A stretch of 14,789 bases of DNA. Origin: a virus. The first letter of the stretch is position 1, and every line of letters starts with the position of its first letter. The notes below the pieces were generated by a model. It worked only from the letters and a program-made list of their open reading frames with translations, had not been told where the DNA came from and did not search any database. Position numbers and translations under genes: made by a program. Below, one piece after another: positions 948 through 3,919 of this stretch. The stretch is taken from IMG/VR virus record IMGVR_UViG_3300031673_000984, one strand, 5' to 3'.

Positions 948-1142
948 TTATACTAAAGTTACATTAACTGCGTTTAATCCTTTTTTACCTTCCACTAACT
1001 CGAAACTAACTTCGTCATTTTCGTTAAGTGTACTTTCATTGACTCCTGAAATATGAACAAAATGTTCTTCTCCAGTGCCCTCTTCAGTTATGAATCCAAA
1101 ACCTTTGGTTTCATTGAAGAATTTTACTTTTCCTTGTTTCAT
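948..1142 (-). CDS. cold-shock protein (CspA family, cold-shock domain)
   Basis: 64 aa, MKQGKVKFFNETKGFGFITEEGTGEEHFVHISGV. The canonical RNP1/RNP2 motifs of CspA-family proteins (KGFGFI, FVHIS) are present. The gene is monocistronic between two terminators. Confidence 0.9.
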   Translation of the reverse strand: MKQGKVKFFNETKGFGFITEEGTGEEHFVHISGVNESTLNENDEVSFELVEGKKGLNAVNVTLV

Positions 1143-1164
1143 TTAATTAATTAATTTGATTTAT

Positions 1165-1196
1165 AATAAAAAGAGTCGGAAATCGTTCCCGACCCT
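1165..1196 (-). terminator. terminator-like hairpin downstream of the Ro60-like gene
   Basis: GTCGG(G)AA...TTCCGAC imperfect stem (1175-1193). On the minus strand it is followed by TCTTTTTATTAT. Confidence 0.45.
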
Positions 1197-1216
1197 TTGT
1201 TATTCAATTTATATAT

Positions 1217-2851
1217 TTAGATTACTATCTTCTCGATTTCCTCTATAATCGCCTTGTAACCAACGGTTCCAGTTTCAACTATATTGAAAATCTTTTCAGA
1301 CCAACCTGCTACCTGAGTAACATTGTAACTCTTATCGAATACAGATGAACCAGAAGTTTGTCTGATGTCGACTGAAATTACCTTAGAAGTTGGGTAGCTT
1401 CTTCTCCACTTCTTGAACAAGTCACCAAATTTTCCACCTCTGGTTTCTGCGGATCTTCCGTACCATGAGCAACCGTCTCCGATTACCATGTCAGAGAAAA
1501 TAATTATATTATCAACTCCTTTACCTGTTTTAAGAGTTTCATTGAAGAAGTCATAGATTCCTGCTTCAGTTCCCCCTCCACATTTTGAACCTTCATTGTG
1601 AATTCTTCTTGAGGTTGCTAAAATACCTTCATTTCTATTTACATTGAAAGGTAGTAACCTGTCTCCGAAAAGACCAACGTAAACATTTGGTTGAGACTTT
1701 AAGAACATCGCAGCAAACACGTTTGCAATATCAGAAGTTCTAGTCTTAGAAAGAGCAGATACTAATGATACTCCTCCACCGTCACCTCTCATTGAACCAG
1801 AGTGGTCAATAAGGATAGCAGTTCTACCTTCAAGTACAGGTATGTTAGCACATGAAAGTTCTATAGCACTTTCTAAAGCCGCAAGGACTTTCTTCTTGCT
1901 ATCTGTTAAGGTAGCGCCATTTACTAATGAACCTTCCTTTTCATCTTCAAATACAATCTTGTCAGCAGCTCCCGCAGAAGTCATGCCATGAATTTCATTG
2001 TAAGCTGATAGGAATCTGAAAGGTAAAAGTCTAGACTTTTGAATCTTTTCAGGTATAGTAAGTTGACGGATTGCGTCATCTACCTTATCAGGTGCATATA
2101 AAATTATGTTTCTTAAGTTTCTAAGCAAGTTAAAAATTGGCATACCAGCTGTATTTTCCAATACAGAAGTAATAGCTTCCTTCTTAGCTTCCTTCTTATC
2201 TCCATCAGTCTTACCTGCTGCAGACATTTCCTTTTCAAGAATCTTTGAGCTATAAAGAGCATCAATTCCCTTTCCACCACTATTAACTAACAAATCAAAT
2301 GCCTTAGCATTCTTTTGAGTTGGCTTTGGGTGAAATAAGTTTACAAGGTCAACAAGAGAGATATCTCTTCCCTTCATCTTGTACTTATCGATTAAATAAG
2401 CATCAAGTCTTTCAAGTCTCTTCTTGAAACCCTTCTTCATTGAATTAGGAAGTTTAATCTTACCACCCTTATTTATAAGTTGGTAGTAACCAAGTATTTC
2501 GGCCATGTCATCTGGACGAACTACAATTTTTTCATAGAATCTTGTAGCCCACTCTAAACCTGATAACTTGCGTGCAAGTTCACCAGCAAGAACATGAGAT
2601 GAGGATCTCATATTAGCTTCAGTTCTAGTATAAATCGCGAGCTTAGCAGCGAATAAAGGGTCAACTTGTTCAAGGGCACTCTTAATTCTACCAAGAACTT
2701 CATTTTCTGATTCGTAATAAGACTTTTGTATAAAGCTAGTTAAAACTGTTGATACAAGTTCTTCCTTAGGAGTTAGTTTGAATGCCTTTTCTCCCATTAA
2801 ATTTGTTTCTGTTGGAACTCTTGGTTCCTTCTTTTCATTGTACTTTGCCAT
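1217..2851 (-). CDS. rsr: Ro60-like RNA-binding protein: TROVE domain followed by a C-terminal von Willebrand A domain with MIDAS motif
   Basis: The track ORF 1217..2890 begins with TTG, but the first ATG is at 2851 (MAKYNEKK...). The N-terminus follows the Ro60 pattern: KAFKL...SYYESENEVLGRIKSALEQVD, PLFAAKLAIYTRTE, LVDLVNLFHPKP, FNLLRNLRN, LLPFRFLSAY. The vWA MIDAS motif is ILIDHSGSM. C-terminal blocks: GGGTEAG...IIIFSDMVIGDG and KVISVDIRQTSGS. The order and spacing of these blocks match human Ro60 (TROVE followed by vWA). Confidence 0.85.
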   Translation of the reverse strand: MAKYNEKKEPRVPTETNLMGEKAFKLTPKEELVSTVLTSFIQKSYYESENEVLGRIKSALEQVDPLFAAKLAIYTRTEANMRSSSHVLAGELARKLSGLEWATRFYEKIVVRPDDMAEILGYYQLINKGGKIKLPNSMKKGFKKRLERLDAYLIDKYKMKGRDISLVDLVNLFHPKPTQKNAKAFDLLVNSGGKGIDALYSSKILEKEMSAAGKTDGDKKEAKKEAITSVLENTAGMPIFNLLRNLRNIILYAPDKVDDAIRQLTIPEKIQKSRLLPFRFLSAYNEIHGMTSAGAADKIVFEDEKEGSLVNGATLTDSKKKVLAALESAIELSCANIPVLEGRTAILIDHSGSMRGDGGGVSLVSALSKTRTSDIANVFAAMFLKSQPNVYVGLFGDRLLPFNVNRNEGILATSRRIHNEGSKCGGGTEAGIYDFFNETLKTGKGVDNIIIFSDMVIGDGCSWYGRSAETRGGKFGDLFKKWRRSYPTSKVISVDIRQTSGSSVFDKSYNVTQVAGWSEKIFNIVETGTVGYKAIIEEIEKIVI

Positions 2852-2901
2852 AATTTCTTCTTTTTTTACTATTAGGGCCGATTGCCCCAAAGGATTAATA
2901 C

Positions 2902-3126
2902 TTATTTAGCCACTAATGGCTTTCTCAATTTATTGGTTTTCGCCAGGATTTTAGGTGTTAACCCATCAAACTTGACATGGTACTCATACCATTGTTTTCC
3001 ATTTGCTAACATTTCTTCAGTAACGTCTTCTTTATGATACCTATGTTCAGCTTTCCAAACTGGAGCAAGGTTATCAACATCTTTTCCTTTTACTTCTACA
3101 GTACTTAAAATTGTTACGTCTTGCAT
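2902..3126 (-). CDS. hypothetical protein (74 aa), in the operon upstream of the Ro60-like gene
   Basis: ORF from the supplied track, tightly spaced with neighbours on the same strand. Confidence 0.5.
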   Translation of the reverse strand: MQDVTILSTVEVKGKDVDNLAPVWKAEHRYHKEDVTEEMLANGKQWYEYHVKFDGLTPKILAKTNKLRKPLVAK

Positions 3127-3130
3127 GATT

Positions 3131-3445
3131 TTAATTTTTAGGTTGTTTACCTTCTATGTAATCGACGATATATTTCGCCATTTCTGATTTATCTTTATTC
3201 TTTTCTAATATTTTTACTAATTCTACAACTAATAAAGCTGCTCCATCTAACGTGGTCGTTACTTTTTCATATCCTGTCGGTACATTATCTTCTGCTGCAT
3301 CTATTCTTTCTTCGTCAGACATTCCGGCTCCCCATCCCCATTCAAATCTAATTAACTTTTTTCCTGTTTCAGGTTCTTCGTCTTCTATTGCTTGTAAGTT
3401 CCAGTAAATACTGTCAAATTCTATTTTTACGAAATTGTCTTCCAT
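3131..3445 (-). CDS. hypothetical acidic protein (104 aa), first gene of the Ro60-containing operon
   Basis: ORF from the supplied track with a 4-nt gap to the next gene. It is preceded by a long AT-rich noncoding region. Confidence 0.55.
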   Translation of the reverse strand: MEDNFVKIEFDSIYWNLQAIEDEEPETGKKLIRFEWGWGAGMSDEERIDAAEDNVPTGYEKVTTTLDGAALLVVELVKILEKNKDKSEMAKYIVDYIEGKQPKN

Positions 3446-3460
3446 ATTGTTTAAACTAAA

Positions 3461-3492
3461 AAATGCCTTGAGTTTTAATTCTCAAGGCATTT
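3461..3492 (-). terminator. perfect 12-bp hairpin followed (on the minus strand) by a T6 run, ending 16 nt upstream of the 3445 start codon
   Basis: AAATGCCTTGAG-TTTTAATT-CTCAAGGCATTT. The minus strand reads hairpin-TTTTTTAGTTTAAACA-ATG. Either a terminator for an upstream minus-strand transcript or a 5'-UTR structure. Confidence 0.45.
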
Positions 3493-3620
3493 ATTGGGGC
3501 CCACCCATTAGGGAGGATTAAATAAATTAGTTGAGAAAAGTGGTAAGAGAGGTTTTCTGTTGTCTATATCGAAGTAACTCTTTCCTTACTACAACTTGTT
3601 TTAATATTTTATGATATTAC

Positions 3621-3636
3621 AAATATAACCAATAAC
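3621..3636. repeat. copy 1 of recurrent motif AAATATAACCAA(A)(A)TAAC
   Basis: Direct inspection. Matches copies at 3731-3752 and 10764-10782. Confidence 0.3.
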
Positions 3637-3730
3637 AGCCCAAAATAAAAATGTTTTTTGTTAAGTTATTGTTAATTTATTTTATATATGTTTTTTCAAT
3701 TTTGGGATAAGTGTACTTGTCGTACATATT

Positions 3731-3752
3731 AAATATAACCAAAAAATAACCA
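3731..3752. repeat. copy 2 of recurrent motif AAATATAACCAAAAAATAACCA
   Basis: Direct inspection. The minus strand reads TTGGTTATTTTTTGGTTATATTT. Confidence 0.3.
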
Positions 3753-3919
3753 AAAGAAAATAAAAATTGTTAAAATATTGTTAAGGGCGTCTTTTTTCAA
3801 TAGTTAGTAGATATATAATTTATATTAACCTTGTGCTTGAGGGTTCAGTGTTCTAGAAACATTTGAGTTGGAGAAATACCAGCGAATGAATTTTCAAATA
3901 TAAAATAAAGTAAGGAATT

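Follow-up and report, generated by a model that had tools for sequence, protein, structure and literature searches.

The window analysed here, a 14,789-nucleotide stretch of DNA from a crAss-like phage (IMG/VR virus record IMGVR_UViG_3300031673_000984), carries on its minus strand a three-gene operon whose last member encodes a Ro60-like protein, followed by a cold-shock protein gene. Ro60 works with Y RNA in a conserved partnership for RNA surveillance, and what this pair does in phages is almost unexplored; many of the related loci described below belong to crAss-like phages, the dominant viruses of the human gut. The genes of this cluster and the hairpins that follow them are:

3445-3131, minus strand: first operon gene, 104 aa (open reading frame without known domain)
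3126-2902, minus strand: second operon gene, 74 aa (open reading frame without known domain)
2890-1217 as called, probably 2851-1217, minus strand: Ro60/TROVE gene, third in the operon
1198-1170, minus strand: terminator-like hairpin 3' of the Ro60 gene (hairpin scan)
1142-948, minus strand: CspA-family cold-shock protein gene (PF00313, E 4.2e-19, residues 3-63)
927-898, minus strand: terminator-like hairpin 3' of the csp gene (hairpin scan)

This arrangement is that of the initial annotation, which had placed a Ro60-like gene third in an operon and a separately terminated CspA-family gene after it. The product of the third gene contains a Pfam TROVE domain (E 2.4e-17) followed by a vWA domain whose MIDAS DxSxS motif, DHSGS, is invariant in the homologue alignment, which identifies it as a Ro60/TROVE protein. 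It also matches PHROG 850 ('RNA-binding protein', 7.8e-32) and the structures 9KOP/9L5Y (1.3e-16) of Ro60 from the Thermus phage phiLo, its closest solved relative. Because homologues begin MAKYNEKK, its start codon is probably the ATG at 2851 rather than the TTG at 2890. The cold-shock domain of approximately 65 aa encoded at 1142-948 is that of a CspA-family protein; this gene has its own terminator and, since only ~27 nt separate the Ro60 terminator from its ATG, no visible room for a promoter. Among the related loci compared, which are designated by L-numbers, only L003 shares with the window a csp gene near Ro60, making the linkage lineage-specific. We considered Csp and the 104-aa and 74-aa proteins as conserved partners of Ro60, and rejected them as general Ro60 components because they are present only in the closest relatives.

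Upstream of the operon lies a 474-bp spacer (3446-3919) in which the sole open reading frame is an implausible 45-aa one starting with TTG, and which had been described as ORF-free and as a possible source of an RNA partner for Ro60. Comparison with other loci, described below, resolves the spacer into the following features:

3784-3727, minus strand: second, diverged promoter-like copy (TTAACAATATTTTAACA ... GGTTATATTTA), ~110 nt further upstream than the conserved block
3690-3616, minus strand: conserved promoter-like block ACATATATAA..TTAACAATAACTTAACAAAAAAC..TTTTATTTT..TTGGTTATATTTG (alignment of the window, L109 and L003)
3599-3526, minus strand: Y-RNA-like module, 74 nt (covariance model R1 and family covariation)
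3517-3500, minus strand: small hairpin UCCUCCC-UAAU-GGGUGGG between module and terminator
3492-3458, minus strand: intrinsic-terminator-like hairpin of 12 bp with an 8-nt loop (3492-3461) and T-run

The last of these is the hairpin and T-run that had been noticed just before the operon start; it ends about 12-15 nt before the ATG at 3445. A scan of 800-4100 found eight terminator-like minus-strand sites against 1.7 expected.

Taken alone, the sequence of the spacer gives little sign of a further structured RNA. The initial annotation found no convincing Y-RNA-like fold by eye, and computation bears this out: the fold of the spacer has a z-score of -2.94, which is due entirely to the terminator and becomes -0.30 without it. 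The Rfam search that it proposed, with Y_RNA and YrlA, returned no match in the spacer or in the whole window, either at the gathering threshold or at E<=10. Across the window only a tRNA at 7054-6982 passes its Rfam threshold, and the remaining hits at E<=10 were rejected as fortuitous alignments to the terminator hairpin. A megablast search of phage genomes with the window gave no match, and an exact 27-mer search of IMG/VR found only the L003 contig. The window RNA is visible only by comparison with other loci.

Searching the window with covariance model R1 gave a single match, at 3599-3526 on the minus strand (66.8 bits, E 2.9e-12), whose start lies 154 nt before the operon ATG. Its ends pair in a helix, H1, of 5 bp (3596-3592 with 3533-3529), above which U3591 is bulged and two more pairs form (3590-3589 with 3535-3534). 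An internal loop (3588-3586 on the 5' side, 3541-3536 on the 3' side) separates these from H2, in which 3585-3578 faces 3549-3542 over eight positions with one A.A mismatch. The unstructured apical loop of 28 nt (3577-3550) begins UUACUUCGA (3577-3569). An unconstrained minimum free energy fold of the window returns the same helices, and that of L109 likewise supports H1, the bulged U and H2. Invariant throughout the family are the bulged U, separated from the internal loop above it by two pairs, the sequence UUAC(U/A)UCGR and a U-rich 3' internal loop.

Both helices of the module covary strongly across the family. In the gapless seed alignment of nine sequences, which leans towards structure because partner strands were partly chosen by complementarity, 89.5% of cells are paired compared with 58.8% in shuffles (0/500), and 16 of the 17 pairs show changes in both partners; a control in which the partner columns were slid gave only 36-45% paired. 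Among 30 distinct model-aligned sequences, an alignment with the same leaning because it was fitted to the model, 91.8% are paired versus 57.5% when shuffled, with a covariation score of 0.847 versus 0.215, and RNAalifold recovered the same helices and one extra covarying pair. When 19 natural modules were aligned by unguided MAFFT and passed to RNAalifold, no structure emerged from the poor alignment, in which 5' halves were shifted by 3 nt and 3' halves scattered; anchored and model-based alignments were used instead. Two other approaches were abandoned: a loosened regular expression, which returned many AT-rich false positives and for which the covariance model was preferred, and a partner search by longest complementary run, which for the window and L003 settled on distant partners that were wrong. 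The 3' partners of these two were set by hand from the conserved C-Y and the U-rich loop.

The module recurs one to five times beside Ro60 genes in many contigs of crAss-like and other phages. Within 300 kb of Ro60-anchored loci all 31 R1 matches lie on the Ro60 strand, as do all 48 in 747 kb (79 Ro60-anchored loci), mostly within a few hundred nt of the Ro60 gene. The metagenome loci L095, L102 and L108 show the same linkage and strand, and in L117, a contig from a Prevotella bin, the module lies 60 nt upstream of Ro60. In crAss001, modules occupy the gap after the TROVE gene gp96 in at least two and probably five copies. Several metagenome loci have modules and no Ro60 gene within the 5-10 kb stretch examined. 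R1 found no match in the first 14 kb of phi14:2, a crAss-like region without a Ro60 gene that includes highly transcribed intergenic regions (bioRxiv paper), and the intergenic non-coding RNAs of that phage are therefore not members of the module family. A Ro60 scan of bacterial genomes yielded only five loci, which are probably phage contigs inside metagenome bins, and among these no cellular counterpart of the family was established.

Promoter-like and terminator-like sequences accompany the module. In two close relatives, L109 and L003, promoter block, module, terminator and operon follow one another as in the window, and the 104-aa gene that comes after the RNA and terminator has 80% and 78% identity, respectively. 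The block at 3690-3616 is nearly invariant among the three and contains a Bacteroidota-type -7 box, TAnnTTTG, at 3627-3620; we consider it a putative promoter. Such a box also closely precedes modules in L002, L009 and L015, and each module of L004 and L005 begins 7 nt after a TTTACA-17-TATAAT promoter. The terminator stem is kept in L109 and L003 through compensatory changes (GCCUUGAG/CUCAAGGC vs GCCCGAGA/UCUCGGGC). Together with the covarying module, the conserved block and this terminator bear out the earlier proposal of a minus-strand non-coding RNA gene within 3493-3919 as a candidate, and the conserved secondary structure across homologous loci whose absence would have spoken against it was looked for and found.

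The module has the broad shape of a Y RNA, with paired ends, a bulge and internal loop and a large loop, and lies as Y RNAs do adjacent to a Ro60 gene in the same orientation. Among known Y RNAs, the family resembles YrlA, the tRNA-like Y RNA of bacteria and phages, which likewise adjoins a Ro60 orthologue on the same strand and has paired 5' and 3' ends, a loop-interrupted stem and a CGA(A)-type motif (PMC4201824). In Infernal alignments the H2 stem and AUACUU of the family align with the basal stem and AUGCUU of YrlA. Some copies carry a tRNA-like insert: in L002_1, L015 and L009_3 it consists of a T-arm, an acceptor hairpin and a D-arm in YrlA order, and the best Rfam match of L002_1 and L015 is YrlA, at 28.5 and 34.5 bits. 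These family scores of 28-35 lie below the gathering score of 69 bits for YrlA (RF02553), and no Rfam family reaches threshold for the module family. The YrlA model does not describe the bulged U, UUAC(U/A)UCGR or the U-rich 3' internal loop and, unlike YrlA, some inserts form an unpermuted tRNA-like cloverleaf with an anticodon arm. Copies in csAssE-Sib (tRNA-Tyr and tRNA-Lys), cr111_1 (tRNA-Gln), L008 and L013 enclose annotated or scored tRNAs, with the CGAA motif forming the 5' end of the acceptor stem, so that some of the 'tRNA genes' annotated in phages lie inside Y-like stems. In L016, L017, L019, L020 and L082, modules are interspersed among tRNA genes.

The window copy differs from YrlA in having neither a tRNA-like domain, for which 3300-4000 gave no match, nor a match in Rfam. 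Its loop motif, UUCGAU, contains CGA rather than CGAA and has no leading G, as compared with GNCGAAN0-1G near the 5' end; most family members have UUCGAA, and the crAss001 copies UUCAA. A CGAA-type motif is a feature that defines YrlA and YrlB (PMC4201824). YrlB of Salmonella and M. smegmatis and Yrn2 of Deinococcus, which are often co-transcribed with the main Y RNA and rsr, share with that RNA only the stem and the CGAA-type motif (PMC4201824). The window RNA resembles them in being small, linked to Ro60 and without a full tRNA-like domain, a likeness of features for which Rfam has no model; it stands alone, whereas they accompany a tRNA-like Y RNA.

Phage-encoded Y RNAs have a precedent in Yrl1 and Yrl2 of phiLo, which lie upstream of the phage Ro60 gene, were identified by their stem-bulge-stem shape and CGAA motif, and bind phage Ro60 and, with it, host PNPase (PMC12135203). 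On the phiLo Ro60 locus R1 found nothing significant (best 11.6 bits, E 0.43); Yrl1/Yrl2 and the module family are therefore analogous and not detectably homologous. Metazoan Y RNAs also have a terminal stem, a single bulged pyrimidine near an internal loop and a large single-stranded loop, and partner with Ro60 as we propose for the module family. Their GGUCCGA/bulged-C helix sequence is absent here, Rfam gives no match and the transcription system differs. The literature searched held no link between crAss-like phages and Y RNAs.

From these comparisons we predict, with a probability of roughly 0.7, that 3599-3526 on the minus strand is a gene for a small Y-RNA-like RNA of an uncatalogued phage subfamily. 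The window copy is likely to be the minimal form of this family, consisting of a bulged two-part end stem and the conserved single-stranded UUACUUCGA(A) loop, and its RNA is most likely the partner of the Ro60 protein. We infer its transcription, ends, Ro60 binding and downstream function as follows. Transcription would probably start from the conserved block at ~3690-3616 and either stop at the 3492-3458 terminator, giving a predicted primary transcript of ~150 nt (usual Y RNAs measure ~80-130 nt and the module 74 nt) that may be trimmed further, or read through into the 104-aa, 74-aa and Ro60 genes and probably csp too. A single unit would thereby supply both RNA and protein, the RNA in excess. 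The ring of the phage Ro60 would bind the stem and CGA-motif region, and the A-rich loop would be left free to tether, for example, a host exoribonuclease, as for Yrn1 of Deinococcus and Yrl1/2 of phiLo. The family can be searched for with a covariance model and has defined helices and invariant nucleotides, and it accounts for long 'empty' spacers beside Ro60 genes. The role of Ro60 in crAss-like infection is now directly testable in cultured crAss001, whose TROVE gene is among the earliest expressed genes (PMC8375218).

The module could alternatively act chiefly in cis, as a leader or attenuator for the Ro60 operon, rather than as a stable trans-acting Y RNA, the stem, small hairpin and terminator forming a switch for read-through that possibly senses Ro60 or Csp. 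The terminator, 12 nt before the first ATG, leaves no room for a separate operon promoter, and L004 and L005 have one module directly in the Ro60 leader. Moreover, the 3' strand of H1 and the adjoining AU-rich stretch are complementary to the 5' arm of the terminator in the window and in both L109 and L003, with a compensating insertion in L109 and duplex energies of -10.4 to -14.1 kcal/mol compared with -3.5 to -6.3 when the arms were shuffled (a fraction <=0.002 did as well). However, these three phages are close relatives, and the AT-rich region has many chance inverted repeats. A leader function is impossible for the many modules located 3' of Ro60 or within tRNA arrays, some of them equipped with a promoter and terminator of their own (the second modules of L004 and L005, and those of L008, L009 and crAss001). 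We regard this reading as unlikely, and an attenuator role would in any case leave that of a Y RNA possible.

A bolder combination, to which we give similarly little credence, makes the module, in this lineage, one arm of a four-segment attenuator and the wider family a new class of phage Y RNA carrying tRNA-like cloverleaves. The 5' and 3' strands of H1 would form the Y stem and the two terminator arms the stop signal, with the H1 3' strand and terminator 5' arm as the alternative pairing conserved in the three phages with its compensating insertion; binding of Ro60 to the nascent Y stem, or its melting by Csp, would set read-through of the operon. If this were true, the stems with anticodon-arm cloverleaves would point to Ro60-based handling or protection of phage tRNAs early in infection.

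It is also improbable that the module serves as a leader and trailer scaffold for the processing of phage tRNA precursors, with the window cassette having lost its tRNA and having no tie to Ro60. The copies that enclose tRNAs, the modules scattered among tRNA genes and the module loci without a Ro60 gene in the stretch examined would fit this explanation. Copies without a tRNA are nevertheless strongly conserved and carry promoter signals themselves, and the loop motifs UUACUUCGA and, downstream, UCAAAACA would have been lost from a dead remnant. The permuted inserts, a hallmark of YrlA, cannot yield a functional tRNA, and matches in Ro60-anchored loci all share the strand of the Ro60 gene and lie near it. 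Mimicry of tRNA and processing by RNase P are, moreover, already typical of bacterial Y RNAs (PMC4201824).

Finally, that there is no functional RNA and the conservation reflects DNA-level promoters, regulator sites and the terminator of the operon region is very improbable since, despite the weak single-sequence thermodynamic support and the duplicated promoter-like blocks and repeated TTAACA-N5-TTAACA motif of the spacer, it cannot explain compensatory changes in two helices across many unrelated sequences or the absolute strand bias.

The Y-RNA-like gene favoured here takes up part of the spacer, only ~150 of its 474 nt forming the RNA unit. The other sequence comprises the duplicated promoter-like sequence, evident from direct repeats D1, D2 and D4 spaced 109-110 nt apart and also from a motif search, and a conserved block adjoining the divergent gene. 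Within the RNA unit, the small hairpin at 3517-3500 is similar to the apical hairpin of the second of the L003 modules, and in L109 a hairpin occupies the corresponding site.

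Nearly all of the genes in the window lie on the minus strand, and since their closest protein matches are to crAss-like phages, namely cr111_1 (Steigviridae; 50%) and csAssE-Sib (49%), the fragment comes from a crAss-like phage; protein matches to L003, an IMG/VR contig from a close relative, reach 86%. The layout described in the initial annotation, a Ro60-like operon with a neighboring cold-shock gene and an upstream spacer (3446-3919) carrying a hairpin, was borne out by ORF, domain and terminator scans, the last of which returned 8 sites where 1.7 were expected:

3445-3131, minus strand: ORF of 104 aa (ORF call)
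3126-2902, minus strand: ORF of 74 aa (ORF call)
2890-1217, minus strand: Ro60 ORF, with a TROVE domain (E 2.4e-17) and a match to PHROG 850 'RNA-binding protein'
1142-948, minus strand: cold-shock domain protein ORF, csp (domain match)
3492-3461, 1198-1170 and 927-898, minus strand: terminator-like hairpins (terminator scan)

Among solved structures, the Ro60 ORF matched solely the Ro60 of Thermus phage phiLo (9KOP/9L5Y; E 1.3e-16), and it contains a DHSGS MIDAS motif that is invariant among its relatives. As these relatives begin with MAKYNEKK, its true start is probably the ATG at 2851. Only the window and L003 have a csp ORF near Ro60; the gene is real, but no general partner of Ro60. Because the gap between the T-run of the Ro60 terminator and the csp ATG is just ~27 nt (within 1143-1216), expression of csp probably depends on read-through of that terminator. 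The window also holds a tRNA whose CUA anticodon reads UAG stop codons (6981-7054, minus strand; ARAGORN tRNA-Pyl; Rfam tRNA, 62.7 bits). It suggests that amber codons are suppressed or recoded, which has been described in some crAss-like phages.

The Rfam Y_RNA and YrlA models had no match in the spacer or elsewhere in the window, even at E<=10, which agrees with the lack of a Y-RNA fold by eye in the initial annotation, and the spacer RNA without its terminator folded no better than shuffles (z -0.30). Alignment with the homologous spacer of L003 revealed islands of near-identity, one of which, AAGTTGTAGTAAGGAAAGAGTTACTTCGA ... ACCACTTTTCTCAAC, is present twice in L003. The motif (A/U)UAC(U/A)UCGR, with U-RG-U/C ~11 nt upstream, was found beside Ro60 in most Ro60-anchored IMG/VR loci and in the two GenBank phages, nearly always on the Ro60 strand. 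Downstream of each 5' motif half we found a matching 3' half, and the resulting module has constant parts:

H1: terminal helix of 4-8 bp
bulged U: invariant
two further pairs: R-Y and G-C
internal loop: 5' side of 3-6 nt opposite a U-rich 3' side of 6-10 nt
H2: second helix of 7-8 positions
apical loop: motif at its start

About 27 of the 56 distinct 5' halves have a real 3' partner, the cutoff being that no more than 1 in 100 shuffles of the sequence downstream equaled its pairing score; for the window copy, 3 in 100 did.

We then aligned nine modules, drawn from six lineages, without gaps, using the invariant U, the motif and C-Y as anchors and keeping 8+8 natural nucleotides of the apical loop. 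In this seed alignment 89.5% of cells were paired, compared with 58.8% in column shuffles (0/500) and 36-45% when partner columns were slid, and both sides had changed at 16 of 17 pairs. A covariance model built from the seed, R1, scored 66.8 bits at 3599-3526 on the minus strand, its only match in the window, and outside the seed it recovered copies in L005 (two), L016, L017 (three), L009, L020, L082, L034, the epsilon-crAss group and crAss001. Across 30 distinct aligned matches, 91.8% of cells were paired (57.5% in the comparison) with a covariation score of 0.847 against 0.215. RNAalifold returned the same two helices from this alignment, along with one additional covarying pair that lengthens H2. 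The seed and larger-alignment values are to be read with two caveats: the 3' partners had been picked partly by complementarity, and the larger alignment was fitted by R1. An alignment by MAFFT without guidance was of too low quality for RNAalifold. The same helices appear, with no constraint applied, in minimum free energy folds of the full transcripts of the window and of L109, a 1.2-kb metagenome contig. The conserved secondary structure that the initial annotation asked for across homologous loci is present, with both H1 and H2 covarying.

The module is closely tied to Ro60. All R1 matches were on the Ro60 strand, both in a 300-kb set (31/31) and, at E<=0.01, in 747 kb from 79 Ro60-anchored loci (48/48). 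R1 was positive at 41 of these 79 loci, a count from a model made from tRNA-less copies that misses most long ones. A search of metagenomes with an 18-mer from the module gave 27 loci, many of them R1-positive; where Ro60 lay in the available stretch (L095, L102 and L108) the module directly adjoined it, and a Prevotella-binned contig carries a 53.8-bit module 60 nt upstream of Ro60. Adjacency is not absolute, since some metagenome loci have modules and no Ro60 within the available 5-10 kb. The first 14 kb of phi14:2, a crAss-like region without Ro60, had no R1 match. In the cultured model phage crAss001 (MH675552), whose TROVE gene is an early gene (PMC8375218, PMC10136315), a 905-bp gap after this gene (gp96) contains two significant R1 copies and, by eye, about five tandem modules with UUAC(U/A)UCAA variants (locus 10055-10775, minus strand; MH675552 ~96,054-96,774). 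A 144-nt Rfam tRNA match in crAss001 (locus 10454-10597) has a tRNA-like shell in which a long motif-bearing insert takes the position of the anticodon arm.

Members of the family vary in the content of the apical loop. Three copies (L015, L002_1 and L009_3) carry, in the permuted order that defines YrlA, a T-arm, then a closed acceptor-like hairpin, then a D-arm, and YrlA is the best Rfam match of permuted-insert copies, with scores of 34.5 and 28.5 bits where the gathering score is 69. Others hold an unpermuted tRNA-like cloverleaf inside the stem, annotated in databases as tRNA-Tyr, -Lys or -Gln, with CGAA as the opening bases of the acceptor stem, which is mismatched in some. Genes annotated or scored as these or other tRNAs lie inside a Y-like two-part stem at the following positions, and may represent either domains of Y RNAs or tRNAs freed from Y-like precursors:

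L002: 3655-3781 and 3800-3929
L001: 2888-3021
L008: 6270-6403
L013: 5785-5925

L016 additionally encodes a GOLLD RNA with an embedded tRNA (503-990, plus strand; 152.2 bits, barely over the gathering score, 150). It shares a tRNA array with a Y-like module and lies ~3 kb upstream of a phage Ro60 gene.

In the short copies, that of the window among them, nothing but an A-rich loop of 17-37 nt caps the stem. This loop has UUACUUCGA at the 5' end and often UCAAAACA at the 3' end, and the copies resemble the short second Y RNAs YrlB and Yrn2. Membership of the window RNA in Rfam YrlA was rejected on both the score and the tRNA-like domain. The phiLo RNAs Yrl1 and Yrl2, found by a CGAA-type motif within a stem-bulge-stem, bind the Ro60 of that phage and, together with the protein, host PNPase (PMC12135203); as R1 does not detect them in phiLo, their relationship to the present family is one of analogy. 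We consider the window RNA to be a Y-RNA-like gene of a distinct phage subfamily. Phage Y RNAs have been reported from mycobacteriophages, CcrColossus, Bacillus phage G and phiLo (PMC4201824, PMC12135203); the text of the crAssE-Sib genome paper mentions neither Ro60 nor Y RNA, and our literature search found nothing tying crAss-like phages to Y RNAs. The Y RNA/Ro60 system is known in kind; this phage subfamily appears undescribed, as do its invariant core and tRNA-bearing forms.

In L004 and L005, loci of higher G+C (one contig is 414 kb), a canonical promoter lies 7 nt upstream of each module, and a G+C-rich terminator follows the downstream copy:

L004 4855-4890 and 6660-6693, and the same in L005: TTTACA-17-TATAAT promoters, one on each side of the Ro60 gene

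Because these promoters end 7 nt before the modules, the RNA is expected to start at the base of H1, as Y RNAs do, and with these loci the family reaches beyond Bacteroidota-type phages. In AT-rich Bacteroidota-type loci a TAnnTTTG box precedes the module by 1-26 nt (window 3627-3620, L002, L009 and L015). L109, whose 104-aa and 74-aa protein copies are 80% and 93% identical to those of the window, has the same order of conserved promoter block, module, small hairpin, terminator and operon, with compensatory changes in the terminator stem. The terminator leaves no space for a second promoter ahead of the ATG at 3445, so transcription of the operon most likely reads through from the predicted promoter of the RNA; Y RNAs of Salmonella and M. 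smegmatis are co-transcribed with rsr (PMC4201824). The terminator's 5' arm, with the bases that precede it, is complementary to the 3' strand of H1 and the AU-rich stretch after it:

window 3521-3537 against 3479-3495, with the same places in L109 and L003: anti-terminator-like pairing

In these three closely related AT-rich sequences the duplexes reach -10.4 to -14.1 kcal/mol, where shuffled arms give -3.5 to -6.3; L109 carries an insertion that is compensating. This geometry is that of an attenuator, a reading of low probability, with the pairing as a possible anti-terminator.

The remainder of the spacer, 3600-3919, contains a second, diverged promoter-like block 110 nt upstream of the first. 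The repeated or conserved elements here, and the copies of one motif elsewhere in the window, are:

3621-3675 and 3731-3784: tandem duplication of this promoter-like block, ~110 bp apart, 73-82% identical
3905-3800, minus strand: conserved block, ~95% identical to L003, adjoining the divergent gene 3920-4690
3659-3675, 3768-3784, 7740-7756 and 12201-12217, minus strand: TTAACA-N5-TTAACA (motif search)

The stretch separating the promoter-block copies includes CAACAAGTA, a short conserved element that L003 and L109 also have. The block at 3905-3800, which opens with a TATATTTG box at 3902-3895, is missing from L109, where the upstream gene is another one; it probably belongs to the divergent gene, and could be its promoter or leader, or another small RNA. 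The four TTAACA-N5-TTAACA copies, all on the minus strand, compare with 0.01 expected; two are in the promoter-like blocks of the spacer, one is just before a terminator hairpin at ~12170-12200, and a further copy with one mismatch precedes the csp terminator. A phage regulator may bind this motif.
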